From Patescibacteria group bacterium (GTDB lineage: Bacteria; Patescibacteriota; Minisyncoccia; UBA6257; 1-14-0-10-40-38): a DNA stretch of 64,000 bases. Made by a program: the position numbers and the translations under genes. Numbering within the stretch: the first letter of the stretch is position 1; every line of letters begins with the position of its first letter. Below the pieces are notes generated by a model. It ran no database searches. It worked only from the letters and a program-made list of their open reading frames with translations, and was not told the origin of the DNA. The DNA is taken from NCBI GenBank assembly GCA_038064975.1, contig JBBTRX010000002.1:128880-192879 (forward strand), given 5' to 3'. Shown here one piece after another: positions 8,549 through 63,960 of the stretch.

Positions 8549-8694
8549 ACCTTACGACACTATAAGTGAGTATTCTTTTCCCAAAACTAATCGTAATCTA
8601 AGCGAGTACACTCTTTAAAAAGGTCATTCTTATAGCTTTTTTAAGAGTGTACGAGCAGCTCTTATAGCTTTTTGAAAAGAATGCAAGCGACTAT
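8548..8694. repeat. Mosaic intergenic repeats (R1-like fragment plus R2 hairpin with GGTCATTCTTATAGC loop)
   Basis: ACCTTACGACACTATAAGTGAGTATTCTTTTCCCAAAACTA (R1-like), then AAGCGAGTACACTCTTTAAAAAGGTCATTCTTATAGCTTTTTTAAGAGTGTACGAGC, which has a covarying stem around the conserved R2 loop. Confidence 0.55.
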
Positions 8695-9531: not shown

Positions 9532-9630
9532 AGCACAATAGACAATAAACAATAGACAATGAATAATGAGGGATAAATAACCCCTTTCGCATCATTCGCA
9601 TTATACATTTCGCATCGGCATCATACAAAC

Positions 9631-10440: not shown

Positions 10441-10467
10441 TTGCTATAGCAAACGTGCGTTTTTGTT

Positions 10468-25142: not shown

Positions 25143-25338
25143 GCTGTGGAAACAATAAGGATTAAAAGATGAATAATATGTGAATAATCTAGTCATTTAG
25201 AAAACACCTAAAAGTTATACGCTTTCTCTTCCAACATCTCTCACTAACTATCCACAAGCATCCAACCCGAAATTCTCTATACTCTACTTCACTTAAATTC
25301 ACATCATCCACATATTCACTCCCTCTACTGCTACTGCT
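25143..25338. promoter_or_regulatory. dnaA-dnaN intergenic region with DnaA-box-like 9-mers
   Basis: CTATCCACA (25248-56), TCATCCACA (25304-12) and TGTGGAAAC (25145-53). Confidence 0.4.
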
Positions 25339-28888: not shown

Positions 28889-28980
28889 TGAAATACTCAA
28901 CATATTAAACCAGAAATTGTAACAAAGCAAAACCCCCAGAGAGCTGGGGGCGCTGCATATATACTGGAGAAACTTAGCTT

Positions 28981-44554: not shown

Positions 44555-44629
44555 GGTGCCTGTAGCTTAATGGTAAAGCTCCGCTCTGTGGCAGCGGCGA
44601 CGTGGGTCCGATTCCCATCAGGCACCCCA
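44555..44629 (+). tRNA. tRNA-His (anticodon GTG) with G-1 and encoded CCA
   Basis: GGTGCCTGTAGCTTAATGGTAAAGCTCCGCTCTGTGGCAGCGGCGACGTGGGTCCGATTCCCATCAGGCACCCCA. Acceptor stem GTGCCTG/CAGGCAC with an extra 5' G. Confidence 0.8.
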
Positions 44630-46096: not shown

Positions 46097-48702
46097 ATTT
46101 TCAATTTTTCTCTAAAGACCTTATCAAATTCCTGCTTAGTGGTTGCTTCGTTATAAAACGGAAGCCCAATAAGTTTTAGCCTACCTCTCTCAAATAAGGT
46201 TCTAATCTCAAATTCCGATTCTATTTCCTTTAGAAAATCTTCTTTCCATTTATCCTCAATCAACCCTCTATTGCCTTTTGGTTCGACAAAGAGCTGGTAT
46301 GACAAGGCCTTCTTGCCACCCTTTTCTTTTAGAAACAGGACAAAATCCGGCTCGATTGCTTGCCCATCGCTAAAACGATAGATTTTAAACAGACGTTCGT
46401 TCCTCAATAAATAAACATCTCGGTATTTTTTGCGTAATTCATCCATAGCCTGTCGTACGAACTGGATCAAATACTTTTCTTCAGAAGTCCCATAATTTTC
46501 GTCATACATGTACCAGTCTTGCGTGCTCAAATCGAGCCTCAACTCATCATTCAAGGTTTCGCTCATTGCCTTACCAAATTCAGCATCCTCACCTCTTATT
46601 AAGAATTCTAAAGTTTTTGTTTTGGCTAATATCTTAACTTTTTCGCCATGAAATTCTTTAGTTCCAATATATTCTTTATTACCTGCCTGAATTTTTTCTG
46701 CTAGCTCCTTCAAGACGTTTAGGGCAATATCAAATTTGTCGTAATTAGTTAGAGCATCCAGTCTACCGTTTTTTGCATACACTTCAATTTCAACTAATCC
46801 AGTAAAGTCTTTTGACGTAATAAATTCATCAATGGATTTCAAGTTTGGGAAAAAGAAACGCAAACTTACAAAACGATAAAAATCAATCTTATCTGCGGCT
46901 TTTCTTAAAATATGTTTTTCAATGTTATTTAGTTTGATCGTTTTCTTCTTAAGTTCCTCGGTTATGAGTGAGTCGGATTGATCGTCAAAAACACCGGATT
47001 CGGAAGATTGCCCACTTTTTATTTTATGCTTAAAAAGCGTATCTTGAATTATATCTTTTAAATTCTTTACGCTGGAATAATCTTTTTTTATCTGTTTATT
47101 AAGAAAAATTAGGCCGTCATTCCAAAAAGGTGTTTTAGTAATGTCATTCTTTATGGAAACAGTCTTATTTATTCGATTGTCCGGCGTAATACCAATGTTA
47201 ACTAATTCATTCCGCAATTCGGCAATGTATCGAGAATCGGTCAGGCTGTGATAATGTAACTCTTCTAAGACTCGCAATTCACTATTTAAATCCTTGTCAT
47301 ATTTACGTTTGTCTTTCTCTTCTTGAGCCTCCGTTGAAAACGGGAAATATCTTGCGCCTCGGCCTATGAGTTGTGCTTCAGATATGGTTATACTTCCGGC
47401 CTTACCGTATTTAGCGTCCCTTGTTTCGTAAAGTCGTACGATGTCAAACAAATTCAAAACATCCCAACCCTCGTTGAGCATATTCGTTGTAAAAATAGCT
47501 CTGGTTTCGTTGTTGTAGTCTTCTAAGGTATTTACCGTGATCTGTTTTGCTTCGCTGTCGGCTTTGCTGTTTATGATTAAGCATTTTTCCTTAGCAAAAT
47601 CTTCCTGAATTTCTTTTATTAAATGTGTTGGACTAATTTTGTTGGCTTTAAAAAAATCAACGGCTTGTTTCATTATTCCTCCTACATTACTTCTCTGTAT
47701 TCTAACCATATCTTCGGAATTTAAACCCTTGATCATCTTGTAAAATTCCTGTTCAAATTCTTCAGAATCCTTTATTTGTCTAGACTTGAACAAGATCACC
47801 GGCTTGAGCTGAATTTTGTATTTCTCGGCCACTTTGCGGCGATACTGGCTCAATATCACGGCCTGCAAAGCCCTGCTTCGTACTTCTAAATCAGATTGTA
47901 GCAACTGCACATCTTTAGAGTAACCATCCTCCCTAAAGCTTTTTAAAGCATATTGATAGATGATTTTATCGGCATATTTTTTAGCTACGGCCGGATGGCT
48001 AAGCTCGATGGTCGCCGTATATTCGAGTAGTATATTTTGGCTATTAGCTTTGAAAATTCTATCTACTGTTCTTTCCCAGCTAGTCGCTTCTTCTTGTTCT
48101 TCTTTATCTAATTTTGACTTTGTTAGAGTATTTATATGGTGCGCCTCATCCGATAAAAAAACTACTTTCAGATTTTTGAAATCTTCATATGTGATTGAAT
48201 TTTCCTGCGGTGTATTTAATTTACTGTGCAAGCCTTGAATAGTCGTAAAAAGTATATTTATGTTGTCTGTGTTTGTGGCTTCAAAATTCTCAACGTCCTT
48301 AATCTCAATTTCTCTATCGTAAAAAGTAATTTTTTCAGCAAAAAGATATTTACTAGAGGCCTTATCCAAAAAATTACTTTTGGTTTTTTGTATTATATTC
48401 GTACTGTTCACAAAAAAGATAAAATTTCGATAACCTATGGAATATGAATATAAAATGTCAGCTGCCATTAAAAGGGTTTTGCCGCTACCAGTTGCCATAT
48501 GAAAAAGCAGATGAGCTGGAGCTTTCCGGCCTTCATAGGTAGCTAAATAATACCGAAAACGGGCTATAGCTTCTTTTTGATATTCCCGTATGGAGAATTT
48601 CGGATTCAGATTCTTTGAAACAAAATCAGGCACGTCTTTCGCAATGACCTTTTGTTTGGAAAGAATATTTAACTCATCTACTAGCTTGATACTAGTTTCC
48701 AT
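46093..48702 (-). CDS. res: Type III restriction enzyme Res subunit (SF2 helicase-nuclease)
   Basis: Helicase motif I MATGSGKT and motif II LSDEAHH. 869 aa, immediately downstream of the DPPY methyltransferase, overlapping it by 11 nt. Confidence 0.75.
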   Translation of the reverse strand: METSIKLVDELNILSKQKVIAKDVPDFVSKNLNPKFSIREYQKEAIARFRYYLATYEGRKAPAHLLFHMATGSGKTLLMAADILYSYSIGYRNFIFFVNSTNIIQKTKSNFLDKASSKYLFAEKITFYDREIEIKDVENFEATNTDNINILFTTIQGLHSKLNTPQENSITYEDFKNLKVVFLSDEAHHINTLTKSKLDKEEQEEATSWERTVDRIFKANSQNILLEYTATIELSHPAVAKKYADKIIYQYALKSFREDGYSKDVQLLQSDLEVRSRALQAVILSQYRRKVAEKYKIQLKPVILFKSRQIKDSEEFEQEFYKMIKGLNSEDMVRIQRSNVGGIMKQAVDFFKANKISPTHLIKEIQEDFAKEKCLIINSKADSEAKQITVNTLEDYNNETRAIFTTNMLNEGWDVLNLFDIVRLYETRDAKYGKAGSITISEAQLIGRGARYFPFSTEAQEEKDKRKYDKDLNSELRVLEELHYHSLTDSRYIAELRNELVNIGITPDNRINKTVSIKNDITKTPFWNDGLIFLNKQIKKDYSSVKNLKDIIQDTLFKHKIKSGQSSESGVFDDQSDSLITEELKKKTIKLNNIEKHILRKAADKIDFYRFVSLRFFFPNLKSIDEFITSKDFTGLVEIEVYAKNGRLDALTNYDKFDIALNVLKELAEKIQAGNKEYIGTKEFHGEKVKILAKTKTLEFLIRGEDAEFGKAMSETLNDELRLDLSTQDWYMYDENYGTSEEKYLIQFVRQAMDELRKKYRDVYLLRNERLFKIYRFSDGQAIEPDFVLFLKEKGGKKALSYQLFVEPKGNRGLIEDKWKEDFLKEIESEFEIRTLFERGRLKLIGLPFYNEATTKQEFDKVFREKLKI

Positions 48703-50392
48703 AGAACGCTTTGTTTATTTTCTTTTTTTCTGCGGGAACTTTATATGTAGCGTCTTCCATTTCGCTATAGTTCACATATAGATGGTTTTTATCCAAACTT
48801 TCAATCAATATCTGCTTCTGATCTTTTAACTCAAGCTCGCCGAATTTCTTTTCATCGAATTTATTTAGGTCTATTTCGTATCTGAAAAATGCCTCCATTT
48901 GCATTTTTTTATAGATATTCAATAACTCTTTGCTCGTCTTACCTCCTCTAATTGCCTGCTCATATTCTTCATTCCATTTCTTAAGTTCCATATAAACGAA
49001 CGATCCGCCGCCTTTCCAATGAACTGCTTTAGAAATTCCGGCCTGATCGCCCTTAACCACTTCTTTTAGGCGTGCAACACTGCCATTATCACCATAATCC
49101 AGTTGCTCGATGCCAATATATTGCCTACCCATTTTATGGGCTACGGCGGCTGTCGTACCACTACCTAAGTGGTAATCTAAAACAATATCTCCCTCATCGG
49201 TCGCCGATTTTATAATTCTCTCCAATAAATTTTCTGGTTTTTGCCCACTAAAATCCTTGATTCTTTCTTTCGCAGTAGCGGCTTGTTGAAATGAAATTAT
49301 ATCACCCCAAACATCACCTATGGCCTTCCCTCTCTCAATAACTTCGTCCAAATAAATCTTTTCGCCCCTTCCGTCAAAATACATTCTTCCAGTTTTCTCA
49401 TCTTTTTTATTAAATCTCGCGAGATATTTTTCGCTATGTTCAGTTTTTACTTTATTAAACTTAAGTGATTTATTATTTTTTGAATAAAACAATATTGAAT
49501 CATGTCCTCTAATCCAATTATTGGCAATTGTTTTATATCCTGACAAAACTGAAATATCCCAAATTATTTCTCTTTGGAAATTCTCTTTGCCGAAAATATC
49601 GTCCATTAAAACCTTACAATAGTGAACCTCATTGTAATCTAATTGAATATAAATACTTCCATCATCTCTTAATAATTGTCGTGCGACCTCTAACCTATTT
49701 TTCATGAAAGTCAGCCAAGTGGAATGATTGAAGCTATCATTGTAATTAAATCCATCCCCGTTGCCGGTATTGTATGGCGGATCAATGTATATGAGTTTAA
49801 CTTCACCTCTATACTTCTTTTTTAGCGAGTGTAAGGCCAAAAGATTATTACCTTTTATTATTAGATTATCCTGCTCGGTTATCCGTTCAATTTCATGTTC
49901 TCCTGTTTTGTCTATTTTCTTTATATTTGTTAACACTTTTGGTTCAAATAGCCGATCAATTTCGTCTGGCGCAAGAATTTCATTATAAAAAATTTCATTT
50001 CGTTTTGAATCTTCTTTGTCTTGCCCGCCCTCCAAAACACAATCTTTATATGGCCAAGCTAAAACCACTTTGCCGCTGTCCTTCAGATAATCATCATTCT
50101 CAACCAATCCAATATGATTTTTAAAAGCAGTAAAAGAATTCGGTAAAAATTCTTTGTTGTTTATGAATCTTACAAATTTATCCTGATTAAAAACAAAAAC
50201 TGCCTTAGTATTTATTTTGCTCTCTGTAAAAAAATGCTCTTTGGTTAGACCATTATTCAGTAATAATTCTAAGAGTTCTTTATCCTGCTTTATCGCCAAT
50301 TCAGTGATCTTGTTCTTTAAGATTTTTCCTTCAGCAAACAATCGTTCGTCTTTTTTTAAAATTTTAGCTAAATCGTTGAATAAATTTTGCAT
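48692..50392 (-). CDS. mod: Type III R-M Mod subunit (N6-adenine/N4-cytosine beta-class DNA methyltransferase)
   Basis: Catalytic IYIDPPYN before the SAM motif DYHLGSGTTAAVA (beta-class motif order). 566 aa. Confidence 0.8.
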   Translation of the reverse strand: MQNLFNDLAKILKKDERLFAEGKILKNKITELAIKQDKELLELLLNNGLTKEHFFTESKINTKAVFVFNQDKFVRFINNKEFLPNSFTAFKNHIGLVENDDYLKDSGKVVLAWPYKDCVLEGGQDKEDSKRNEIFYNEILAPDEIDRLFEPKVLTNIKKIDKTGEHEIERITEQDNLIIKGNNLLALHSLKKKYRGEVKLIYIDPPYNTGNGDGFNYNDSFNHSTWLTFMKNRLEVARQLLRDDGSIYIQLDYNEVHYCKVLMDDIFGKENFQREIIWDISVLSGYKTIANNWIRGHDSILFYSKNNKSLKFNKVKTEHSEKYLARFNKKDEKTGRMYFDGRGEKIYLDEVIERGKAIGDVWGDIISFQQAATAKERIKDFSGQKPENLLERIIKSATDEGDIVLDYHLGSGTTAAVAHKMGRQYIGIEQLDYGDNGSVARLKEVVKGDQAGISKAVHWKGGGSFVYMELKKWNEEYEQAIRGGKTSKELLNIYKKMQMEAFFRYEIDLNKFDEKKFGELELKDQKQILIESLDKNHLYVNYSEMEDATYKVPAEKKKINKAFYGN

Positions 50393-52226: not shown

Positions 52227-53405
52227 TTAAGTCTTCCCTTTATATTTTTGATTAAAAATAACAGAGCGTTTTTTTACCTCCATCACGTCTCTTAGTCCTG
52301 TCTCACGAATTATTTTGCTATTTAATTGATAAGCGGCATTTTCGAATCTTTTTTCATTTGGTTCTTGATTGGGCTCATATTCTTCTGCAATTTCAGAGTA
52401 GAACCACTCTCTAAAGGCATCATCCGGATTTTTAAAAGCTATTTTTAATAGTTCATATTGATTACTATGATTTCTTAACATAACTTTTACTGACCCAACA
52501 AACAGCAGAGATTTGATAGGATCAAACTTTAATTGAGGGATTATCTCTTGCTTTGGAAGAAATAGTTTGCTCACGAGAGAAGAGTAGTCATTCTTTTCGG
52601 CCTCGCTAAGAAAGGTTTCTTTGATTGTTATATTAGCTTTAGCATTTTTTAAATCTTTCGATGACAAACTATTCGGATTCTTATCCGAATCAACAACCCA
52701 AAAATAGTCCAATTTTATAAATCCTTCATACTCCAATGCTAATACAGTATGGATGAATTGATATTCATTGTTGAAATGAAAATCCATAATCTTACCTTTA
52801 TCAATAATAAAATCATCTCCATACTTTTTATATAGGTCCAATAAGCCACTAAGCATGGATTTCTTCATCTCTTTATAAAGAACATAATTTTTAGTTTCTG
52901 ATTTCAACTTATCTTCCATAAAAAGCTTTATATAGCCGTTTAGGTATTTTTCTATTTTCTTTTCAGTTTTCTTGTCTAGGGCAGTCTCAAACTCAATAAA
53001 TTCGAAGATTCTTTCGAAATGCCTTGTTAAAACACGATCGGCAAAATCAATTATAGTAAACCTATCTTCCAGAATATTCTTAAAGAATTTTACACTCCCG
53101 GCTTCAGGATTTTTCTCAATATACTCTTGCAGCTCCTTAAAATTCGCAGGATTATATTTCTCATAAATATCCCTATGAAATTTGCCGTTGAAAGTGAAAT
53201 CAAGTTGCTTAGCGATCCTGCCTAGCCAAACGTAAGTCGTAGCGTAGTCAAAATTTGGTGGAAGGAGATAGTAGGCGTTTGAAACGGCTTTCTTTGCTGC
53301 TTGTTGGCCAAGCAACAAGTTTTTTAGAATATATAGGTATTCTTCACGCCAATAGGGAAGTTTTTTAACATCGCTTACTTCTTTCATTACATCTTTAGGA
53401 AGCAT
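52227..53405 (-). CDS. hypothetical protein (392 aa), partner of AAA+ ATPase
   Basis: Lys/Glu-rich, predicted helical, no motifs. Its start lies 12 nt after the ATPase stop on the same strand. Confidence 0.45.
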   Translation of the reverse strand: MLPKDVMKEVSDVKKLPYWREEYLYILKNLLLGQQAAKKAVSNAYYLLPPNFDYATTYVWLGRIAKQLDFTFNGKFHRDIYEKYNPANFKELQEYIEKNPEAGSVKFFKNILEDRFTIIDFADRVLTRHFERIFEFIEFETALDKKTEKKIEKYLNGYIKLFMEDKLKSETKNYVLYKEMKKSMLSGLLDLYKKYGDDFIIDKGKIMDFHFNNEYQFIHTVLALEYEGFIKLDYFWVVDSDKNPNSLSSKDLKNAKANITIKETFLSEAEKNDYSSLVSKLFLPKQEIIPQLKFDPIKSLLFVGSVKVMLRNHSNQYELLKIAFKNPDDAFREWFYSEIAEEYEPNQEPNEKRFENAAYQLNSKIIRETGLRDVMEVKKRSVIFNQKYKGKT

Positions 53406-53417
53406 AAAATATTCGAT

Positions 53418-54857
53418 TTACATCGTTAAGAAATATGGAATAGGTACCTTAACAATATTCAATCTTTCGTGAAGTTCTAACTCATCAGAGCTAATAACCA
53501 CACCAAAATCACAACTCACCATTTCCATTGTTTTCACGACTTGGCTAACATTTTTTGAACCCGAACCTATCTCAACTGCTATTCTTAGTTTGTCTGGAAT
53601 TTGAAAGATAAAATCGGCCGTTTCTGCCGCGCTGTGATGAGTAAGAATGCCTACGCCAGTGGTGAGAAACTCGCGATAGAAATGGAGGCCAACAACATCT
53701 TCTAGAAGTATGCCCCTCTTTGCAGAGAAAGCTCCTTTTATTCCGGCAACGCTAACTAAAGCCATTCGTATTGCCGGACTCATAAAGAGATATTTAGCTG
53801 GTTTTCTAGCTGTAGCTGCGCCTGAGCCATGAGCTGGCACACGAATGATTAACTCGGCCTTCTCTAATGCCTCTAGTACATTTACAAGGGTTACATTAGT
53901 AAATCCTAGAATAGAGCTAACCTTGTTAATGCTGAGTGAATCAGCATCTGCCATTACAAAGAGTAGTCTCTTGATAGAGCTTAGGGTTTTTATATCAAAT
54001 TTCCCTAATCCTGTAAGATCCTTTGTTATCATTCGATCAAGTAATTGAGAAATGGCTTCGTAGGCTTGAGGTTGAGTCATTGTTTTTATGGCGAATGGGA
54101 GAGTTCCAACCGTAAGAAATTTATCTACATCATTACTATCTATTTTTTTCCAGTATTCATTTATTTTTGGTTCAATCTTCTTAAGTTCTTCAAAAACATC
54201 CTTAGCAGTCTTTTTGCTATATAATGCATTTTTAATCTCTTGCTTCAATTGAGGTGTCGGAAATACATTACTTTCGATCATCTTAAATTCTCCAAAGCTT
54301 AATGGATACAATTTTTCTATGACCGCTCGTCTGGCAATATCAGGATTTGTTTGTAGAAGTACGGCGGATGAGCCGGTACAGACAATGAAAATATTTCTAG
54401 CTCTATCATGCAAAGCTTTCAGGTAAAGAGCCCAATTTACATCAAGCTGAATTTCGTCTATTAGAAGACAAACAGGATGTTTAACTTGTTCTAGGGGACT
54501 ACCCAGTATTTTTTCATAAGCTTCCAATACTTCCCGCAATGAAATCCCAATCGTAGACATAACGTCATCAATGGAGATATAAATGATATGATTGGCAATC
54601 AGTTGCTCTCTAAATTTATAGTAGATTTGTGCGAGTATGGTTGTTTTGCCAACGCCACGAAGTCCAGGCATAACGACCCAGCGTTGGTCTCTACCGCCAG
54701 ATAAAAATCCCTTTATTAGTTTTTCTATTCTAAAAAACGCATAACGTTTCGGATAGGAAAAATTAGGCGTTGGCCTTGTGTAAGGGAGTAATCGGTCTGA
54801 GTTTTGTTGGATTTGATTCTTGACGTATGCTATAGCTTTTTCGTCCATATTATTCAC
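53418..54857 (-). CDS. AAA+ superfamily ATPase (COG1373-like, DUF4143-type C-terminal domain)
   Basis: Walker A VMPGLRGVGKTT, Walker B CLLIDEIQ and sensor TGSS. 479 aa. Confidence 0.7.
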   Translation of the reverse strand: MNNMDEKAIAYVKNQIQQNSDRLLPYTRPTPNFSYPKRYAFFRIEKLIKGFLSGGRDQRWVVMPGLRGVGKTTILAQIYYKFREQLIANHIIYISIDDVMSTIGISLREVLEAYEKILGSPLEQVKHPVCLLIDEIQLDVNWALYLKALHDRARNIFIVCTGSSAVLLQTNPDIARRAVIEKLYPLSFGEFKMIESNVFPTPQLKQEIKNALYSKKTAKDVFEELKKIEPKINEYWKKIDSNDVDKFLTVGTLPFAIKTMTQPQAYEAISQLLDRMITKDLTGLGKFDIKTLSSIKRLLFVMADADSLSINKVSSILGFTNVTLVNVLEALEKAELIIRVPAHGSGAATARKPAKYLFMSPAIRMALVSVAGIKGAFSAKRGILLEDVVGLHFYREFLTTGVGILTHHSAAETADFIFQIPDKLRIAVEIGSGSKNVSQVVKTMEMVSCDFGVVISSDELELHERLNIVKVPIPYFLTM

Positions 54858-55103
54858 AAGGGTGTTTATTTCACTTTAATATCTCTTGTATATCATACTA
54901 TATAAGTAATTACAAGCACCTGTTTTGCATAGCCTTTATATAACACTTTGATCAGTTTTTCTTATTCGAAACACTTAAAGTTAGACACTTTTTAGCCCTA
55001 TTAAGGTGTGAATAAGATTTATTCTTGGCTTCAATAGTAAGGGAAATAGCACCTCGGGTGACGTAACTTCACTATTGAACGAACGTTCACTATACATAAG
55101 AGT

Positions 55104-55220
55104 ATGCCCAACGATTACTTAAAAGTGATTGTCGGATTTTATCGGAAATTTAAGCGTATGCCTAGCTATGCGGAATTAAAGAAAATATGTTCCGAGACGA
55201 AACTAAAAGGAAAAGACTAG
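55104..55220 (+). pseudogene. LexA-like N-terminal fragment (38 codons)
   Basis: MPNDYLKVIVGFYRKFKRMPSYAELKKICSETKLKGKD resembles the LexA N-terminal winged-helix (xxLKxIxxFYxKxGxxPSYxEL) but stops after 38 aa. Confidence 0.25.
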
Positions 55221-55246
55221 GCTTTCCAATGTTTAGTGGAGAGTAG

Positions 55247-55334
55247 ACGTATGTGAGACTTCAAGAAAACTCAAATCCTCGCTTATTTTCTTCCAATCTA
55301 CGGTTCTAAACACATCCAGTAAGGCCGCCAATCT
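55247..55334. repeat. about 85-bp direct repeat, copy A (downstream end of RHS cassette)
   Basis: ACTTCAAGAAAACTCAAATCCTCGCTTATTTTCTTCCAATCTACGGTTCTAAACACATCCAGTAAGGC matches 62204-62274 with 1 mismatch. Confidence 0.55.
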
Positions 55335-55387
55335 ATTACTGCGCCACTAGGAGTGGTATAAAGTTTGGTAGTGTAATCACCATTCAT
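55298..55387 (-). pseudogene. orphan copy of RHS C-terminal tail coding fragment (MNGDYTTKLYTTPSGAVIDW...) fused to repeat copy A
   Basis: Minus-strand mini-ORF MNGDYTTKLYTTPSGAVIDWRPYWMCLEP. Its first 20 aa are identical to residues near the RHS C-terminus, and the end reads into the 85-bp repeat. Confidence 0.4.
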
Positions 55388-55405
55388 TACTATATTTTAA
55401 TATCA

Positions 55406-55678
55406 CTATTTCTTTCTAAAATTCCTAAATGCAATTTTTAAAACAAATAAGATGAGTATAACTAAGGCAATCATTGAAACAATACTTTCAGTCATGAGTA
55501 TTTTTGCTGATGATTCAAAAATAGTTTCTATTATTAAATCTATTGTTTTAAGAATAAAACTTATTCCAGCAACGATACCAAGCCACAAATAATCTTTATC
55601 TTGATATTTTTTCCAAGCCCAATAACTAGCAACAATGAGGATTAATGGGACTATATATCTTAATATTTCTATGCTCAT
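55406..55678 (-). CDS. small 3-TM membrane protein, immunity-like (paralog 2)
   Basis: 90 aa sharing YWAWKKYQDKDYLWLG with the adjacent paralog (YAWSKKQGKDFFWLG). Located immediately downstream of the RHS toxin. Confidence 0.5.
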   Translation of the reverse strand: MSIEILRYIVPLILIVASYWAWKKYQDKDYLWLGIVAGISFILKTIDLIIETIFESSAKILMTESIVSMIALVILILFVLKIAFRNFRKK

Positions 55679-55690
55679 AAAATTTAATAA

Positions 55691-55759
55691 TTAGTTTGTA
55701 GATCCTGAGATAATATTACCCCACCAATCTATAACTGCCCCGGTTAGTGATGATTCGGT
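55691..55759 (-). pseudogene. orphan RHS C-terminal tail fragment (TESSLTGAVIDWWGNIISGSTN*) directly after paralog-1 stop
   Basis: In frame after the TAA of 55760-56029, it encodes ...GAVIDWWGNIISGSTN, matching the RHS C-terminus ...GAVIDWWGNIISGPKN. The underlying motif is CCCCACCAATCTAT(A/C)ACTGCCCC. Confidence 0.4.
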
Positions 55760-56029
55760 TTATTTTTTTAAATATTCCAAAAATATTCTTATTATAAAGA
55801 AAAAAGTTATTAGCAAAAGAATTGAAGATATTAAATATATAGGCAATTCATATCCTGCAGAAAAATTAGAAAAGGTACGTAATATATATTTAGTCACATT
55901 TAGGATGATAAAACCTATACCTACCCAACCAAGCCAAAAAAAATCTTTTCCTTGTTTTTTTGACCATGCGTAAAAACAAATACTCGTTCCTACTAAATAA
56001 AAAATTATATAGAAAATTATTGAATTCAT
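55760..56029 (-). CDS. small 3-TM membrane protein, immunity-like (paralog 1)
   Basis: 89 aa with three hydrophobic helices, 12 nt downstream of the RHS stop. Confidence 0.5.
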   Translation of the reverse strand: MNSIIFYIIFYLVGTSICFYAWSKKQGKDFFWLGWVGIGFIILNVTKYILRTFSNFSAGYELPIYLISSILLLITFFFIIRIFLEYLKK

Positions 56030-56041
56030 AAATATTAAAGA

Positions 56042-59000
56042 TTAATTTTTTGGTCCTGAAATGATGTTGCCCCACCAATCTATCACTGCCCCACTAGGAG
56101 TGGTATAAAGTTTAGTAGTGTAATCGCCGTTCATCATTATATTTTGTTGATTTGTATTATTTTGAGCGTTCCCTTGAGGAGTTTGAGTTCCTTCCTTAAA
56201 ATTTTGTATTCCCTCATTAAATTTCTTATAATCTTCAATCTGTTGAGCTATTGCTGGGCAAGCAACGCTACACACAGCGCCTATAATCTTCCATAAAGGC
56301 CACTTTGGATCAAATTTTGGAGGTTCATTGTTAAAAATTTTTGCCTGTTCAGGACCCCTCACAAGTCGACTCTGTTCAAATGGTCTCTGACTCAATCCAT
56401 CATTGTTTCGAAGTAGTGCCGCAGTACCGACCACAAGCGCACCGACACCCACAACGGCTACGCCTATCAAGAATGCTTGAGGTGCTACAAAGAAGACTGG
56501 CAATGCGAAAGGAATGGCAATTTCACCATCTGGGTCAATTAGATTTATCGGATTATTTTTTACGTAAGAGTATGAATTTAAGCTCTGGGGATCGCTAAGC
56601 ACGCTCTCTAAAGATTGGCCATATCTATCTTCAAAGTTTATATCACCGATCGCAAGATACGATGGATCTTCACTTAAAAACCTTCCCCAATTAGTATTCA
56701 AATACCTCGCTTTCGCATACGTATAGTCTAGAGCATCTGCATCGTATTCGTGTCCAGTATACTTCCTTTTTTCAATCGTTGTACCAACATCATTCTTGAG
56801 TGATCCAAACGCAGTGTACCCCACTTCTTCCGTAATGTTAGCAGAGTCATCGGTTACTAACGATGTTGAACGGAGATGATCGGAGCTATTCCATAGGATA
56901 GTAGGATCTCCTGTCCCTATGACCACCGTAGCTACCGGTATGCCGTTTACAAAGATATGTTCTGTGGTTGTGGCACTTCCTTCTTCGTTAAAGTAGATAG
57001 ATGGGTATGTGGTCGTGGCAAGGTTTGTTACGTGGGAATAAACCCTTTGGCCGCTTGTATCATATCCATACGTTGCATATTTTGTTTGTTGCCCAGGTCC
57101 TCCGAAGGATTGAGAGGAGAATCCTCCAGTTTGTTGAGATGGGAGTTTGATTTTTACTAATCTATTATTCCAATCCCAGGTGTGGGTAAGATTGCCGGTA
57201 CGATTTACGAGATTACCGTTTTTGTCGTAGGTCAAGGTTTCTGCGCCTACCCTCGTAGCCGCATGTGGGTTTGCAAAATTAGCTGTAGTTGTCCCTTGAT
57301 ACCAATACACGCCTTCGGGAGAAGTGAGGATATTACCAACGGGAGTGTAGGTGAAAATTTCAGAAAAGATGTTTGTAGACGAAGCGTTTACGGTTGAGCT
57401 TGCGAGACGATAGAGACTGTCGTATTCATAATCGGTCACACGATTCGGCAATGTTGCCGTGTCAGAAAAGACAGCGATTTTTGTAATATTCCCAACAGCA
57501 TCATAGGTATAGAGAAATTGCTGGAGCGTATTACTTCCATCATCTATGATTTTCCTTTTCAGACGATAGAGTTCATTCTCATCATAGGCATTCTCTATCG
57601 TTGTGCCATTCGCGTTTGTTTGGAACGTCACGTCCCCAGTCGGCGCATAGTCAAAATCAGAAACAATCGTAGTAGTCGCTACCCCACTTTCTTTCCAGTA
57701 CACCGCTTCAGGATGCCCTGCATTGTTGTATTCGTACGTAATCAAGGCATCATTCGGATTCTTGATCGTGAGCGGGTTACCAAGATAGTCGTAGGTATAA
57801 TCCGTAAGATATACATTACCGTCTATTATTTTGGTTTCCTTACCGATATTCCCCGCATAGTCATAGCGGTTGTTCAAAACCATCTTTCCCGCCGTAATAG
57901 TTGTTGTCGTTGCGATACAGAGGCGACCCACACCTTGGGAGCAGGCGTCGTAAGTGTATTCTGCTTCCAAACCCGACGTAAGCGATGCGTTTTCGCTTGT
58001 TATTCTGTTTAATGTGTCATATGCGTACGTTACGGTAGAAAAATCTGGTTTCTTTTTTTCCGTAAGATTACCGGCAAAGTCATACGCGTACGTTGTTGTT
58101 CCAAAATAAATATCGGATAGTTCATGCATATCTTCGGCAAAGGTTCTCCTCCCAAGCATGTCATATTCAAAATTGCGGACATTACCTTCAGCATCGATGA
58201 TTTTTATGAGGTTACCGAGAGTATCGTATTCATAGCGAGTGACATACGGAGAGGTTGTGGCATATTCATCCACACGATTCAGACGCCCAAAAGCATCGCG
58301 ACTAAAAACTTTTTTATTATTGTTTGAATCGGTAGTAGTGGCGTACCAGTTGTCGTATGTTGTTGCCGTATCACCAAACACCTGATCAACGTTCACTACT
58401 CTATCCAATGCATCGTATGTATATGAAGCATACAGCGAAGCAGTTGTTGTCGCAGATGTTTTATTTACGCCAGAACTGAAATACGGCAATGACTCTTTTT
58501 CTACACGACCTTGTTCGTCATATACCGTGTCTTGTACCGCATAGATTGTGCCACCATTATCCTCTGCGCGAGAGCGGGTCTGGATAGCACGCCCGAAGCC
58601 GTCAAAGTATGTTTTTATATCAGTTGAAAGAGCGGGTAAAAGATTGTTCGTTTCTTGAACAGCATATTGATTTGCTGTGTCGGTATAGGTAATAGTCTTT
58701 ATCGTTACGAGTGCACCTGTAAGAGGGTCGGGAGATTTTTGGGTCTTTATGCGATCCAGTGAATCATAGACGGTTTCATATATTTCTCCATTGGGAGTAA
58801 TAGTCTGCGTAGGTTGCCCAGAAGAATAGTCATACAAGCGTTCCGTCTCGTGGCCTAAAGCATTTGTTGTCGTTTCTGGATAAAGATTTAATGAGTCATA
58901 TACGTACGTTGTTTCGTTGTAGTTTGGATCACGATCGGAGAGCATAAGTCCAAAACTGTTATACACATGCGTAGTAGAGGCATAGGTTGTGCCTTCTATC

Positions 59001-62000
59001 AAAAATTCTTTTTTAGTTGGATTGCCCACTGATACTTCGCCAAACGATAAATCGTCGTATGTTATCTTTTGATCTGCAACAGTAGTATTGGCATAATCTT
59101 TAACGGTTTGTTGTGATAATAACTTTATATAATCCGTACTACTTTCTGCATAATCATAGTCGGTGGTACGAACATCATCCCCTATGTCGCTAAAGGTTAA
59201 TGGATCAGATGCGGTTACTTCACCCCATTCTTTTTCTTGAGTAAGATTTCCTGTTGTAGTTGCAAATGAAAAAGTTTTTGCCACGTCTCTATGCGTTCCA
59301 TTCCCGTCATAAGTCTCTGTGATAATTTGCGATGGATATACTAAAAAAGCAGTGTCAATGGAAGTTGTTGCTGCATTCCATTTCGTAGTTGTTCGTGTCA
59401 TCAAATTTCCATTTGAATCCAAGCGATCTATGCGATAAGCTTTTCCGATTTTTGCATGATGATCTAAATCTTCATACAACGTTGTACTCGCGGTGTCACC
59501 TTGATGGAAATAGGTTATCTCCTCAGTTCCATCTGGTTTGATCTTGGTAACGGTTTCAAAACCTGCAAACCTGCGATCGAAAGAGTCTTTGAAGAAATAA
59601 TGTCCACCTGCATAACTATATGTTGTTGTACTGACCGTACCCGTCACTGAGTCTGTCTCTCCCACCGCTTGAATTGTCTGAGTAGTAAAGGGAAGTTCTG
59701 GATTTAAGAGATTACCCCCTGCGTCTTTGTATTGAGATGAAGCCTCATATGAGGTTGTTATGACGCCACCCGTAGGAAGAGTAATTTTTGAAAGTAAGTC
59801 TGGGGTGTTGCCAGTATTGAAGAAAATATCAGCAACACAATCAGGATTGCAAACGCTGTGAATAATATCTAGAAGTCCATCGCCATTAATATCACCAACC
59901 TGGCGAACAATAGTATCGCTTGATATTCCAACTTGTAAATCTCCTGCATTAAGATAGTGATCCCATCGATGAAGAAATATTTTACCAATACTTGAAAACA
60001 TATCGGGAAGATCATCGCCGTTCATATCAGCAATAAACGTTCCCGTGGGTCCGGTTGTAAAATCTTCAAACATATTCGAATCCCCTGATCGTAAATTTGT
60101 AAACCCTGAATCATATGTGAAGCCAGTAGAAGAAGTCACTACTGAAGACGTTGCTCCTTGGTTGATATATATTTTTGCATCATATGAACCACCAAATGTT
60201 TTAAGCGCCCTAAAAATATCAGTCAATCCATCGTGGTTCATATCAACTGCACGAATACCAAGTTGATCCGGTACTTCAGATGGCATCGTAAAGAAAGAAA
60301 AATCGATTCCATTATTTCGATCTATTTCAAATGGGAGAGGACCAATAGTACGAAGTCGATCGAAAAGTCCATCGCCATTTATATCTCCTACCATGGGACG
60401 ATCAAGACTATCAGGATCAAGCTTCGGCACAGCACCAGTCCAGGAAGAGTCATACTGCCAATTTGTACCACTATTTATATGAACTTCTGACGTAAATGGG
60501 GGTGATACAGGGCCATAGACGTAATCACTTTCTGCATCACCATTAATATCCGCAACAATCGTACCATCTGCGTTACAAAAACTTCCTGCATCCAATCGCG
60601 TGCAAATTCGAATAAGCACAACACCACCTTGTTTGTGTGGTATTTGCCAACTTGTGGATGTAGCAAATGTATTATCGTGTTGATTAATCCAAACATATTC
60701 TTTGTCAATGGTTGATGGATTCTCAATACGAGTTGATTGCAAGACATCAGCATAACCATCACCATCTACATCGGTAACAATGACGCCATTAGTATAATCA
60801 AGACTTCTAATCGTTATATCTGCTGTGCTTGAAGCAAACGAGAAATTACTCGAGGTATATTGAAAATTTGTAGTAAGTTCAATAAGAGTTCCAAAAGGAT
60901 CGCCCTGATCTCGGATAGAACTGACACGTGAACGCCCTGTAAGAGAATTGTCATCGTAAGTAACGACATAGCGTCGCACTAAAACACCATTTTCTCTAAT
61001 ATCGATATTATTTAAGCGGTTCCTTGTTTCAACTTTAAATCCAGCAAAATAAGACTTTTGATCATCCTGTCTTCCAACCCAACCAAAACTGATTGAAAAG
61101 ATTGGAGTAGTGGTTGCTGGAGCGTCTGTGTACGCATATTCAATTTTAGATGGATATATTTGACCTTGATTAGCGGTATAGGTATATAAAATCTCATTAC
61201 CGTTTGCGTCTTTTATTCGATCAAGCATCCATTTGTATCCGGTTGAAGTTGCGTAGGGAGAAGCAATGCGCGTAGTTGAAGCACTCCCAAAAAAATACAT
61301 TACACCATCCTTAGTCTCGACCTTCCAATGATCATCTTCCGTTGAAGAAGTGGTGTATGTATATTTATTAAAAGCACCAGTATCTGTTTTTGCTATGAAT
61401 TGATCATTTGAAATATACGCGAGAGATCCATCAAGAGATGATAAGAAACTCTCGTATGGAGTATCATACATTCGTTCGTTTCCATATTTATTCTCACGAA
61501 TAATATAAGGAACATCGAGATTCCATCCATATCCAATATAGGTACCATCTGAACGATCCTGTGAGTTATATACTATCGCAAGATCAGGAGTAAAATCATT
61601 GCGACCAGGAGGTAGTTGAATTGGATAGCGGTATACATATGCGCCCGAAGAAAGATTAGCCTGTGGTTTTATTTGCCGTATTGTGTTTATGGGCTGAACC
61701 GTTGAGTATGGAATGTCTGAGGCAGATTTTGTAGTCCCGCGACTATCTCCCGAATTACTACTTCCGCCAGAAGACCTTTCTTCAACGCTTGGCATTGCCG
61801 CAGTTCGAGAAGAAACGTTTGCCACATTGCCGGATATATCTGAATCAGTACTAATCGTATCTGTAGTATTACTATTATCTAAAGACGGCACATCAATAGA
61901 AAACGCCGATTTTTGAATCGGCGCCTGTATTACTTCGGGAGATGCATCAATAATTTGACCAAATATCTGAGAAGGAAAAACCAAAGAAAAAGCGGTTATT

Positions 62001-62065
62001 CCTACGAGGAAGGAGGTACTTATTCTACTCATCCGTTTATTTAACCTCTTCATATTTTTCTTCAT
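56042..62065 (-). CDS. RHS/YD-repeat polymorphic toxin (2007 aa) with N-terminal signal peptide, FG-GAP-like repeats, RHS core and C-terminal variable toxin domain
   Basis: Many YD repeats (YTYDALDRV, YEYDTLGNL, YAYDTLNRI, YTYDAVGNI, YEYDSLYRL), an RHS core ending in LIDPDGE, N-terminal D-x-[DN]-G-D-G repeats (DVDGDGYADV, GDINGDGLFD), and an about 170-aa C-terminal region containing a hydrophobic segment. Confidence 0.85.
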   Translation of the reverse strand: MKKNMKRLNKRMSRISTSFLVGITAFSLVFPSQIFGQIIDASPEVIQAPIQKSAFSIDVPSLDNSNTTDTISTDSDISGNVANVSSRTAAMPSVEERSSGGSSNSGDSRGTTKSASDIPYSTVQPINTIRQIKPQANLSSGAYVYRYPIQLPPGRNDFTPDLAIVYNSQDRSDGTYIGYGWNLDVPYIIRENKYGNERMYDTPYESFLSSLDGSLAYISNDQFIAKTDTGAFNKYTYTTSSTEDDHWKVETKDGVMYFFGSASTTRIASPYATSTGYKWMLDRIKDANGNEILYTYTANQGQIYPSKIEYAYTDAPATTTPIFSISFGWVGRQDDQKSYFAGFKVETRNRLNNIDIRENGVLVRRYVVTYDDNSLTGRSRVSSIRDQGDPFGTLIELTTNFQYTSSNFSFASSTADITIRSLDYTNGVIVTDVDGDGYADVLQSTRIENPSTIDKEYVWINQHDNTFATSTSWQIPHKQGGVVLIRICTRLDAGSFCNADGTIVADINGDAESDYVYGPVSPPFTSEVHINSGTNWQYDSSWTGAVPKLDPDSLDRPMVGDINGDGLFDRLRTIGPLPFEIDRNNGIDFSFFTMPSEVPDQLGIRAVDMNHDGLTDIFRALKTFGGSYDAKIYINQGATSSVVTSSTGFTYDSGFTNLRSGDSNMFEDFTTGPTGTFIADMNGDDLPDMFSSIGKIFLHRWDHYLNAGDLQVGISSDTIVRQVGDINGDGLLDIIHSVCNPDCVADIFFNTGNTPDLLSKITLPTGGVITTSYEASSQYKDAGGNLLNPELPFTTQTIQAVGETDSVTGTVSTTTYSYAGGHYFFKDSFDRRFAGFETVTKIKPDGTEEITYFHQGDTASTTLYEDLDHHAKIGKAYRIDRLDSNGNLMTRTTTKWNAATTSIDTAFLVYPSQIITETYDGNGTHRDVAKTFSFATTTGNLTQEKEWGEVTASDPLTFSDIGDDVRTTDYDYAESSTDYIKLLSQQTVKDYANTTVADQKITYDDLSFGEVSVGNPTKKEFLIEGTTYASTTHVYNSFGLMLSDRDPNYNETTYVYDSLNLYPETTTNALGHETERLYDYSSGQPTQTITPNGEIYETVYDSLDRIKTQKSPDPLTGALVTIKTITYTDTANQYAVQETNNLLPALSTDIKTYFDGFGRAIQTRSRAEDNGGTIYAVQDTVYDEQGRVEKESLPYFSSGVNKTSATTTASLYASYTYDALDRVVNVDQVFGDTATTYDNWYATTTDSNNNKKVFSRDAFGRLNRVDEYATTSPYVTRYEYDTLGNLIKIIDAEGNVRNFEYDMLGRRTFAEDMHELSDIYFGTTTYAYDFAGNLTEKKKPDFSTVTYAYDTLNRITSENASLTSGLEAEYTYDACSQGVGRLCIATTTTITAGKMVLNNRYDYAGNIGKETKIIDGNVYLTDYTYDYLGNPLTIKNPNDALITYEYNNAGHPEAVYWKESGVATTTIVSDFDYAPTGDVTFQTNANGTTIENAYDENELYRLKRKIIDDGSNTLQQFLYTYDAVGNITKIAVFSDTATLPNRVTDYEYDSLYRLASSTVNASSTNIFSEIFTYTPVGNILTSPEGVYWYQGTTTANFANPHAATRVGAETLTYDKNGNLVNRTGNLTHTWDWNNRLVKIKLPSQQTGGFSSQSFGGPGQQTKYATYGYDTSGQRVYSHVTNLATTTYPSIYFNEEGSATTTEHIFVNGIPVATVVIGTGDPTILWNSSDHLRSTSLVTDDSANITEEVGYTAFGSLKNDVGTTIEKRKYTGHEYDADALDYTYAKARYLNTNWGRFLSEDPSYLAIGDINFEDRYGQSLESVLSDPQSLNSYSYVKNNPINLIDPDGEIAIPFALPVFFVAPQAFLIGVAVVGVGALVVGTAALLRNNDGLSQRPFEQSRLVRGPEQAKIFNNEPPKFDPKWPLWKIIGAVCSVACPAIAQQIEDYKKFNEGIQNFKEGTQTPQGNAQNNTNQQNIMMNGDYTTKLYTTPSGAVIDWWGNIISGPKN

Positions 62066-62195
62066 TATCGCAAACCCAATTCCCCTCTGTCAATTAAGAT
62101 TGTCAATCCTCAAAACAATAAAGAGTGTTAAGGGTATGGTGAAATAATCCTTTATTCTAAATTAAGTCATAGGTTTAGCGGAGAATAGATACATG

Positions 62196-62278
62196 TGGAA
62201 CTTCAAGAAAATTCAAATCCTCGCTTATTTTCTTCCAATCTACGGTTCTAAACACATCCAGTAAGGCACCCACAGAAA
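62196..62278. repeat. about 85-bp direct repeat, copy B (upstream of RHS gene)
   Basis: Matches copy A. It lies about 140 nt upstream of the RHS start codon. Confidence 0.55.
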
Positions 62279-62394
62279 TAAAAACGACCTGGTTTATCCC
62301 GGTCATTTTTATTTCTATAGAGATGCTTAATGGCGTGTCGGATCGCGGGCCGCAGACCCCGAAGAGGGGTCGAAGGTTTCGAGGTCAGTAGGCC

Positions 62395-62413
62395 GAGAGG
62401 CGATTCCCATCAG
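62395..62413 (+). repeat. 19-nt duplicate of tRNA-His 3' end (putative attR of island)
   Basis: CGATTCCCATCAGGCACCC is identical to 44607-44625 within tRNA-His. Confidence 0.55.
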
Positions 62414-62444
62414 GCACCCAATAAACAACCCCCTACCTATATGG

Positions 62445-62765
62445 TTAGGGGGTTTTAATTTTGTCGTGGCAATACTCACGGAGACTTCCATAGGTTCTGA
62501 TTTCTTTCGGAATCATGATACGGAGCTCACAGAGGGCGCAGACAATAATGTCGTAAGGAGCAATGGTGACGGTGTGGCGAAAAATGAGGGCGCTATAAGG
62601 CTTCTTTTCGTTTGGACAGTTTTCATGAACCCCTAGCGGATTCTTGAGATCGGCGTAGTCATTGAGTAACGGTCCCTGCATTTCGTCGTTGCGACTAAAT
62701 ATTCTTCGTTCTTGGGGCGGCACAAGCATATCGCCCCATGCAGTTAGCATGATGGGTGTGAACAT
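62445..62765 (-). CDS. hypothetical protein
   Basis: 106-aa ORF just outside the island repeat, with moderate GC and no motifs. Confidence 0.3.
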   Translation of the reverse strand: MFTPIMLTAWGDMLVPPQERRIFSRNDEMQGPLLNDYADLKNPLGVHENCPNEKKPYSALIFRHTVTIAPYDIIVCALCELRIMIPKEIRTYGSLREYCHDKIKTP

Positions 62766-63060
62766 GGCTCGGCCCTTTCTCTAGTTATCTTGGGAATGAA
62801 CACGGCTCTTACTGTATGCCTAGGAGGGGTGTTTTGCAAATACTCATATAAAAAAAGAACCGACGCTGCGGGTGGCAGCGTCGTTGATTGGTTGAAGGTC
62901 TCTCGCGTAAGCTTGAGCCTTAGTGATGGGGTTGGAACATATCGTTCCTACGTAGTTCCCTCGCGTGGCGAAGGGAGTTGGGTAAAGGTATTTAGTTGGG
63001 AAACAACTAACCTTAGTATCGGGAATATTCGCCGAACCGTCAACTCAAGTTATCCACACT

Positions 63061-63960
63061 CTAGAAGAACGGGATAATTTCCTTAATATCAAAATCTTTT
63101 TCCCCATTTACTTGTACCTCACACACACCGTTTACTTCTTCTCCCGTAGAGTCAGTAACCATAACATCGGCGGTTTTTGTTCCTATAGAGTTATATTCCG
63201 TATTTATTGACGGTCCAGAACCACTATTAGGAGAACCACCGCCAAGAGAATTCCATATATATGTATATGGCTGAACGCCGTTGCTCGCAAACGCAGTCCA
63301 TGCGACGGATGCTAATCCGTTTGAGAGTGTTACAGGGTTTGGAGATCCTGAACAGGTAAGGGTAAGTCCTGGGGGAGGAATGTTGCCAAGAGAAACAATG
63401 CCAAGAGGGGGATTTGTGGAAGCGTCATTGCCAAAAGATATCCATCCTAATTCGTTTGACCACGCATGTCCTTGAAATCGGTTATCAAAAGGAGAGATTT
63501 GATTCGCATCAGTCACAAGCGTTACCCCATAAGGAGTTAAATCTCCTGCATTACCCTTTAGTTTTATCCATCCGTCCCATCCTCCAGAATTACCAACGGT
63601 TTTTGCATCAGCAATGCTCATAATACGAGCCCATCCTCTGAGATTATCTCCATTGCGTATCGCTCCCGTATTGGGCGGTGCAGGATAGGGACCTGTCGGA
63701 TTAAAATCAATCCAGCCAAGATTAGATGACCATGCGTATCCTGTCACAGGTCCATCGCTTGTTGGAATAGTAACGCCATATTCAATGGATGAGCCGGTAG
63801 GATTGTTGCTCGTAAGACTTATCCATCCAACACCTGTTGCTGTTTCAAGGCTGGGGCCTCCTTGTAGATCGTTTGTGCTTCCTCCCCAGAGCCAATGAAG
63901 GGTATTAGAGTGAGTACCATAAGCAACGGATATGGCGCTAAAAAATAGTAGTAGCATCAC
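63061..63960 (-). CDS. secreted repeat protein, hypothetical
   Basis: Signal peptide MMLLLFFSAISVAYG, recurring about 40-aa repeats containing GW(I/D)(S/D)F and AWS(S/N)(N/E)LGW, and Gly/Asn/Pro-rich composition. Confidence 0.45.
   Translation of the reverse strand: MMLLLFFSAISVAYGTHSNTLHWLWGGSTNDLQGGPSLETATGVGWISLTSNNPTGSSIEYGVTIPTSDGPVTGYAWSSNLGWIDFNPTGPYPAPPNTGAIRNGDNLRGWARIMSIADAKTVGNSGGWDGWIKLKGNAGDLTPYGVTLVTDANQISPFDNRFQGHAWSNELGWISFGNDASTNPPLGIVSLGNIPPPGLTLTCSGSPNPVTLSNGLASVAWTAFASNGVQPYTYIWNSLGGGSPNSGSGPSINTEYNSIGTKTADVMVTDSTGEEVNGVCEVQVNGEKDFDIKEIIPFF

Follow-up and report, generated by a model that had tools for sequence, protein, structure and literature searches.

Why should the closing codons of a large toxin gene reappear, detached from the gene itself, behind each of two small membrane-protein genes that follow it? 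The question is raised by a 64,000-nucleotide stretch of DNA, here called the window, from a Patescibacteria group bacterium (GenBank assembly GCA_038064975.1, contig JBBTRX010000002.1, positions 128,880 to 192,879), in which a gene of the Rhs polymorphic toxin type is trailed by two genes for small proteins with about three transmembrane (TM) segments and by two shortened copies of its own 3' end. The copies are probably leftover 3' ends of former toxin genes, standing as stumps in front of retained immunity genes and produced by sequential C-terminal displacement. The parts of the locus are listed here in the order of transcription; P0121 and P0126 are a toxin and a small membrane protein of a second Rhs locus in the same metagenome-assembled genome (MAG).

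56042 to 62065, minus strand: putative Rhs/TcB-TcC-like polymorphic toxin gene, 2007 amino acids (P0001, also P0128), from Pfam matches and homologs
56042 to 56521 (stop included), minus strand: C-terminal toxin tip, 159 amino acids beyond the NPINLIDPDGE boundary, from alignment and homolog comparison
56042 to 56145, minus strand: tail 1, the 3' end of the live toxin gene (MNGDYTTKLYTTPSGAVIDWWGNIISGPKN, then stop), from translation, repeat scan and codon comparison
55760 to 56029, minus strand: small gene 1 (P0124), 89 amino acids, about three TM segments, putative cognate immunity gene from position, hydropathy and paralogy
55691 to 55759, minus strand: tail 2, apparently a 16-codon stump (GAVIDWWGNIISGSTN, then stop) of a second, P0121-like toxin gene, 81% identical over 67 nucleotides, with codon comparison
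55406 to 55678, minus strand: small gene 2 (P0125), 90 amino acids, three TM segments, putative orphan immunity gene, 84% identical to P0126
55325 to 55398, minus strand: tail 3, apparently a 20-codon stump (MNGDYTTKLYTTPSGAVIDW) with about 10 nucleotides upstream of it, cut at the junction with a direct repeat (A2), 89% identical over 74 nucleotides, with codon comparison

P0001 denotes the gene-caller version of the toxin, which starts at Met12 and has 1996 amino acids.

Copies of the toxin tail

The last 16 to 30 codons of the toxin gene reappear behind each of the two small genes, and nucleotide alignment places this recurrence, which a first-pass annotation of the window had proposed, beyond chance. 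Tail 1 matches tail 3 over 74 nucleotides (56072-56145 against 55325-55398, 89% identity, blastn E=7e-23) and tail 2 over 67 nucleotides (56026-56092 against 55675-55741, 81% identity, blastn E=1e-10), the latter pair standing at a period of 351 nucleotides and the homologous block at tail 2, 55675-55741, taking in the intergenic spacer. A degenerate pattern of the tail had 2 matches in the window and 0 in 100 shuffles. Tail 2 lies in frame directly past the TAA stop of small gene 1, just as had been noticed at the outset, and is without a start codon; its 5' end falls at G14, the G of GAVIDWW, 18 nucleotides beyond that stop. Tail 3 begins about 10 nucleotides ahead of an ATG (M1) and 8 nucleotides past the stop of small gene 2, and this ATG and an internal methionine of the Rhs gene have the preceding context AAAATATA in common. 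After codon 20 tail 3 enters the direct repeat, designated repeat A, and is read as MNGDY...IDWRPYWMCLEP up to a stop codon. The longest exact runs between the tails measure 14 to 23 nucleotides.

The codon differences among these copies are all silent. In the 20 codons compared between tail 1 and tail 3 there are 5 synonymous changes and 0 non-synonymous ones, and the 13 codons compared between tail 1 and tail 2 give the same numbers, with a P of about 3e-4 under random substitution in either case; the tail peptide is under strong purifying selection. Since every difference of the stumps from the live tail is synonymous, the stumps appear to have diverged while they still belonged to functional toxins, rather than as debris of a duplication in situ, and so strong a constraint on the tail points to a role in toxin action or export.

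In outline the array is reminiscent of integron cassettes, in that short reading frames alternate with a repeated element of about 70 nucleotides and a recombinase gene lies within 10 kb. Unlike the attC hairpin of an integron, the repeated element of the window is coding and diverges by synonymous changes only, and the recombinase is of the large serine type. The integron reading was rejected: no gene called at the locus was noted as a tyrosine integrase, and the tails, which have no inverted-repeat partners in the repeat scan, evolve as coding sequence.

The toxin tip and its candidate immunity genes

An Rhs toxin cassette had been recognized in the window from the letters alone, and Pfam agrees: the 2007-residue protein matches RHS_repeat (1.7e-18), SpvB (9.7e-18), TcdB_toxin_midN (6.3e-21) and FG-GAP_3 (1.7e-6), with DUF6443 in addition. 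A protein search returned 382 Rhs homologs, most of them in Patescibacteria and many from Paceibacteria, Saccharibacteria and Uhrbacteria MAGs, and the protein appears to be of the fused TcB-TcC-like type that is common in Patescibacteria; its N-terminus, MKKNMKRLNKRMSRISTSFLVGITAFSLVFPSQIFG, resembles a Sec signal. The core-end motif NNPINLIDPDGE, of the PxxxxDPxG type, is present, and N1826, N1827, D1833 and G1836 are invariant in a seven-protein alignment in which conservation of the Rhs core ends at DPxG and the homologs are unrelated beyond that point. By its shell domains and core-end motif the protein would be a member of the Rhs/YD-repeat polymorphic toxins. At least three large Rhs genes are present in the same MAG (P0001/P0128, P0121 and P0002/P0127), two with the tip family described below and the third with an unrelated tip, P0002 being 59% identical to P0001 and dropping to 20-35% past the core-end motif. 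Within the Rhs gene of the window, at 59861-60801, there are internal repeats of 18 to 34 nucleotides, spaced 135 to 357 nucleotides apart, that represent FG-GAP/VCBS-type 'D-x-N-G-D-G' calcium-binding motifs.

The tip is composed of a hydrophobic TM start (IAIPFALPVFFVAPQAFLIGVAVVGVGALVVGTAALL), a variable segment of about 80 residues, a Q/N-rich linker and the 30-residue tail. Pfam had no match to four tip sequences at E<=1 save a spurious one at 0.14, and the AlphaFold model of the tip from a four-sequence alignment had a mean pLDDT (predicted local distance difference test score) of 36.7, too low for the model to be used. Relatives were sought with an index-free phmmer search of the last 124 residues against 1.84 billion representative proteins; a word-indexed protein search with the 159-residue tip missed the very protein that contains it, and its empty result is not read as absence. 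Three proteins were matched, namely P0121, P0122 and, more weakly, P0123. P0121 (MEK7612173) lies at the edge of a contig and represents part of another Rhs protein (Rhs #2) of the same MAG; its tip has 58% identity and closes with KLYTTPSGAVIDWWGNIISEPTN, and the gene is truncated where the contig stops, probably because of repeats between the copies. P0122 is an orphan-type Rhs tip from a Joint Genome Institute (JGI) metagenome, with a long low-complexity linker and the end RLYVTPNGAVINWFGGIIAP... A metagenome scan added one locus (L084) in which a homologous tip ends before the linker and tail and is followed by an 83-residue 3-TM gene, and which carries a core fragment.

The tail occupies the end of a long Rhs protein in all intact homologs. 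Sliding identity between P0001 and P0121 is 85-95% over the core end and the TM start, 35-50% over about 80 residues and about 80% in the tail, so that a conserved tail after a variable segment, as first proposed, holds within this tip family. Among the best 120 of the 382 Rhs homologs none has the tail except the protein itself, and the degenerate tail pattern had 0 matches in genome and metagenome contig collections, the window's own contig being in neither; a single match in viral contigs was an out-of-frame stretch of a GC-rich phage and was dismissed as chance. The first-pass annotation had gone further and seen in the tail a new cassette-exchange handle that would follow non-homologous reading frames. 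The evidence does not support this, since the tail was found only on homologous tips (P0121, P0122 and weakly P0123), the homologous tip of L084 is without it, the genes that are preceded by it in the window are all of one family, and the tail arrays expected elsewhere turned up in none of the genome, metagenome and viral collections, of which the first two do not hold the window contig. Judged by these comparisons, the tail appears to be a C-terminal motif that is conserved but optional within a single uncharacterised tip family, and not a feature common to unrelated toxins.

Small genes 1 and 2 are paralogs (33-36% identity, E=1e-10), and the two-paralog array of the initial description is thereby confirmed (36%, E=1e-10); hydropathy gives about three hydrophobic segments in each. 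A profile of the small genes, searched against 5.8 billion clusters, recovered only three proteins, all from the same MAG: the two small genes of the window and P0126 (MEK7612174). P0126 immediately follows the tail-bearing Rhs #2 gene (P0121, MEK7612173) and is 84% identical to small gene 2 (74/88) and about 32% identical to small gene 1. This position and this likeness suggest that the unit formed by tail 2 and small gene 2 duplicates the 3' end of a toxin-immunity module of the Rhs #2 type; small gene 2 would then be an orphan immunity gene whose former toxin survives as a stump, tail 2. That the small 3-TM genes might encode immunity proteins had been considered from the beginning, and the 84% identity of small gene 2 to the gene right behind another Rhs toxin with a tip of this family lends support to such a function, the grounds for which are position and paralogy. 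Pfam had nothing above threshold for the small genes, and hhalign found no detectable homology between their profile and the 3-TM protein of L084.

Small gene 2 has a sub-threshold similarity to DUF6442 (E=0.0039, 17.8 bits against a 25-bit cut-off), and residues 1128-1216 of the Rhs protein carry DUF6443; the adjacent numbers may mean that the two families were defined from neighbouring genes, and may point to a broader immunity family. Tips that act on membranes and are paired with small membrane immunity proteins are familiar, for example from CdiA-CT/CdiI of E. coli EC93 and from the pore-forming effectors of type VI secretion systems (T6SS). The window resembles pairs of the EC93 type in combining a small multi-pass membrane immunity protein with a hydrophobic tip, a likeness of general layout with no sequence or structural similarity shown. 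As the tip is rich in TM segments and the small immunity-type proteins are TM proteins, the tip would be released from the Rhs shell and may well act on a membrane.

Repeat A and the origin of the array

The locus is bounded by the two copies of repeat A, to which no strand is assigned.

55231 to 55330: repeat A copy 2 (A2), from the repeat scan
62173 to 62272: repeat A copy 1 (A1), from the repeat scan, 108 nucleotides upstream of the Rhs start codon, with a hairpin (62274-62316) immediately upstream of it

The repeat is 100 nucleotides long, with 90% identity between the copies and an exact core of 53 nucleotides, and its two copies enclose precisely the Rhs gene, the array and tail 3. Direct repeats flanking the cassette had been described before, and rightly so, but as 85 base pairs at 55298-55387 and 62196-62278 and at a distance of 140 nucleotides from the Rhs start, which is in fact 108; the tail had likewise been described as fused into the repeat, and it does adjoin A2, with an overlap of 6 nucleotides (55325-55330, a TGG/CCA microhomology), the placement of the repeat having taken in part of tail 3. 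No third copy is present in 72 kb of available sequence. Rfam had no match at E<=1 over 54800-63100, tail and repeat A included, and at the gathering threshold found only 5 tRNAs in the whole window; RNA folding of repeat A on both strands gave Z-scores of -0.3 to +1.2, no sign of structure, and relaxed ARAGORN found no pseudo-tRNA in repeat A and the att region.

A1 sits 129 nucleotides inside attR, the distal att-like repeat of the tRNA-His island described in the last section, and the outer end of A (TCCAGTAAGGCACCC in A1; 62258-62272 and 55316-55330) agrees with the tRNA-His 3' end (TCCCATCAGGCACCC) at 12 of 15 positions, with an exact run of 9 nucleotides. The DNA between A1 and attR, at 62320-62400, is GC-rich and contains hairpins (e.g. 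GACCCCGAAGAGGGGTC), with no Rfam match and no tRNA call. The reading we tentatively prefer is that the cassette inserted next to an A already in place, through homologous crossover within A on one side and illegitimate joining at the tail 3 TGG on the other. A would thereby have been duplicated, and the 10% divergence of its copies would be that between donor and recipient. There are also hints of an alternative, the accretion of two related elements, with A perhaps an island arm beside a decayed att site.

A mis-joining of repeats among the genome's three Rhs loci, giving a spurious junction of tail 3 with A2 or a spurious array, is scarcely credible as the source of the arrangement. It is true that Rhs #2 is broken at a contig end and that two short-read contigs break within the 53-nucleotide exact core of repeat A. 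Against this, 53361-55528, which runs from small gene 2 through tail 3 and A2 into an ATPase gene, is matched at 100% identity by an independent Logan contig (L109) of run SRR32696705, the Rhs 3' end, small gene 1 and the start of small gene 2 are identical in run ERR3858113, and several large assemblies have the same gene order; a junction that is reproduced in an independent assembly argues that the arrangement is no artefact. Searches that started from the ATPase gene and the gene flanking attR, and that were meant to reveal islands lacking the Rhs cassette or tRNA-His sites lacking the island, recovered only the same arrangement or contigs broken in repeat A.

If displacement is the origin of the array, as we think probable, then tail 1 would be the live toxin end, followed by small gene 1 as its cognate 3-TM immunity gene. 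Tail 2 would be the 16-codon stump of a second, related toxin, surviving only because it stood immediately upstream of that toxin's immunity gene, which was kept as an orphan, and tail 3 would be the 20-codon stump of a third allele whose remainder, along with its immunity gene, was lost at the illegitimate junction with repeat A. The array would have been built by successive displacement or insertion of toxin-immunity modules with one end homologous and the other illegitimate, so that old toxins would be cut away and old immunity genes retained. Illegitimate joins would also produce irregular 5' ends such as those of the stumps, with tail 2 beginning at G14 and tail 3 about 10 nucleotides before M1. 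Small gene 1 would protect against the resident tip and small gene 2 against tips of the Rhs #2 type, those of neighbours included, and the stumps themselves would be inert.

There is precedent for such a process. In the T6SS of V. cholerae, incoming effector-immunity modules displace the old effector and the old immunity gene is kept downstream, the 3' end of the effector being sometimes shifted along with it; homology-facilitated illegitimate recombination is the proposed mechanism, and a link is drawn to Rhs C-terminal displacement (Kirchberger et al. 2017, PMC5361080; Jackson et al. 2009). Jackson et al. (2009, PMC2935791) describe that displacement together with orphan toxin/immunity modules. 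The model of PMC5361080 predicts a 3' toxin stump with a retained immunity gene, and the arrangement in the window fits that prediction. As in the V. cholerae arrays, old effectors would have been removed and immunity genes kept, and the orphan resembles a cognate immunity gene elsewhere; unlike those arrays, the window has another delivery system and other effector families, the array is short (one orphan and one bare stump), and the orphan's nearest relative comes from its own genome instead of from another strain. With Rhs orphan-module systems the window has in common a conserved core, a variable tip past a DPxG-type motif, an immunity gene directly downstream, and further promoter-less toxin fragments and immunity genes stacked behind the main gene. 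It departs from the T6SS PAAR-Rhs systems among them in its Patescibacterium host, its Sec-type N-terminus and its fused TcB-TcC-like architecture. Rhs C-terminal displacement and orphan toxin/immunity modules were reportedly also the subject of work by Poole et al. in 2011 and Koskiniemi et al. in 2014.

Two properties of orphan arrays are found at the locus: an extra immunity-type gene is related to the cognate gene of another toxin (small gene 2 and P0126), and the toxin fragments upstream of or beyond it have neither a start of their own nor a delivery part, tail 2 being without an ATG and tail 3 shortened. How often such stumps occur was examined in a survey of 79 Rhs loci from GTDB genomes, 62 of which were checked for a downstream recurrence of the last 150 or so nucleotides of the Rhs gene. 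The toxin 3' end is repeated downstream at two other loci of the 62. At one of these (L005, Ca. Uhrbacteria JADZFU010000004.1, 11842-13144) the Rhs gene is followed by a 98-residue TM gene, a 54-codon 3' stump (81% nucleotide identity), a paralogous TM gene (31%) and a classical orphan core fragment; its tip is unrelated to that of the window, and so no special tail seems to be needed for the pattern. The other (L049, a Nitrospirota MAG, 8560-11916) has a 100% duplicate of the Rhs tip and a 150-residue TM gene, separated by a 543-residue open reading frame; if this is, at a guess, the transposase of an insertion sequence, the toxin-immunity module would have been duplicated recently. On this comparison the stump pattern belongs with the orphan arrangements already known, as a form that is infrequent but recurs.

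Several observations weigh against displacement as the origin of the array. In classical orphans of Rhs and contact-dependent inhibition (CDI) loci, part of the conserved core is preserved 5' of the tip, and L005 and L084 do carry core fragments, whereas downstream of the main gene of the window only extreme 3' ends, the last 16 to 20 codons of the toxin, are found. The pattern is also not the commonest form, as only two other loci of 62 have it. The tails (81-89% nucleotide identity) are more alike than the small genes beside them, which calls for functional constraint on the ancestral toxins, although divergence under selection within working toxins would account for it. The Rhs #2 locus was compared at the protein level only, with neither a donor allele nor an intermediate arrangement, and the roles of toxin and immunity protein are themselves inferred.

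Other origins have to be set beside this one. Tandem duplication in situ of a unit of about 351 nucleotides (a toxin 3' end with its immunity gene) by unequal crossing-over, after which the small genes diverged and gene conversion kept the tails alike, would explain the regular 351-nucleotide period, the head-to-tail order and the paralogy of the small genes. It is nevertheless improbable, as small gene 2 is 84% identical to P0126 elsewhere and 33-36% identical to its neighbour small gene 1, tail 1 is more like tail 3 than like tail 2, in contradiction to simple serial duplication, and neither neutral decay nor conversion accounts for tail differences that are exclusively synonymous. We also hold it unlikely that the tail is a dedicated downstream homology arm for the double-crossover swap of modules made up of variable segment and immunity gene, with a further role perhaps as a translocation or processing signal. 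Tail sequence does lie on both sides of every small gene, the variable 80 residues or so of P0001 and P0121 are bracketed by a conserved TM start (85-95%) and tail (about 80%), and the tail peptide is strongly selected; yet exact runs of only 14-23 nucleotides are poor substrates for recombination, the stump boundaries are irregular, the tail is confined to one homologous tip family and missing from the homologous tip of L084, the collections scanned hold no further arrays and the available assemblies no recombinant junctions, and L005, with an unrelated tip, has the same stump pattern. It is accordingly doubtful, to a like degree, that the locus is organised for two-sided exchange of variable segment, tail and immunity gene between the Rhs loci of a genome and between strains, with the tail maybe an export signal. 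Very unlikely, finally, is the expression of the tail copies as separate peptides (such as a bacteriocin-like 30-mer from the internal ATG), each with its own membrane immunity gene as partner: the tail 3 ATG has the same AAAATATA context as the internal Rhs methionine and the peptide sequence is conserved, but tail 2 has no start codon, tail 3 is shortened and runs into repeat A, neither tail 1 nor tail 2 has a consensus promoter-like site upstream, and in intact homologs the tail is always the end of a long Rhs protein.

The tRNA-His island and the meaning of the locus

The Rhs cassette is the distal 7 kb of an island of about 17.8 kb integrated in tRNA-His, the ends of which are marked by three features.

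44556 to 44629, plus strand: tRNA-His, the proximal island boundary, from the tRNA call
44618 to 46096, minus strand: large serine recombinase gene, from Pfam Resolvase, Recombinase and Zn_ribbon_recom, its 3' end overlapping the tRNA by 12 nucleotides
62401 to 62419, plus strand: distal att-like direct repeat (attR), a copy of the tRNA-His 3' end, 19/19 nucleotides against 44609-44627 and 21/22 when extended

The far direct repeat, the recombinase beside the tRNA and a deviating composition, with a GC content of 0.33-0.37 at 46-51 kb and of 0.31-0.39 at 52-56 kb where the rest of the window has roughly 0.40-0.50, are the properties of a tRNA island, and attR adjoins the terminator of the flanking chromosomal gene. 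Besides the Rhs cassette the cargo includes, between it and the recombinase gene, a type III restriction-modification system (mod 48692-50392, res 46093-48702), HTH_17 and SpoVG genes and the AAA_14/DUF4143 ATPase gene. The window is 100% identical to an ENA contig of 227,827 bp, Hain_H51_01um_R2_6, from Hainich groundwater, and its proteins bear NCBI names of a MAG with locus tags AAB407_. A second patch of low GC content (0.33) lies at 25000-27000, around the 3' part of an 827-residue reading frame (26447-28930, minus strand) and a 371-residue one.

The kind of locus is already known, and what is new is modest: the tip family, the stumps made of extreme 3' ends only, and the setting on an island in a member of the Candidate Phyla Radiation (CPR). 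The tip family, small and newly defined, is probably membrane-acting; its TM start is conserved, its middle evolves fast, its linker is of low complexity and its tail of 30 residues is strongly constrained, and its 3-TM partners would confer immunity. Were the tail to prove a recombination arm or an export signal it would be of wider interest, and two-sided exchange, if it occurs, would amount to a second recombination register at the extreme 3' end, distinct from the classical junction of core and tip; the present data require neither. The synonymous-only divergence of the stumps provides a clean internal marker of their origin from working alleles. A Patescibacterium would here show the toxin displacement and the hoarding of immunity genes that are known from Proteobacteria; of the three Rhs loci of the organism, one sits on a mobile tRNA island.

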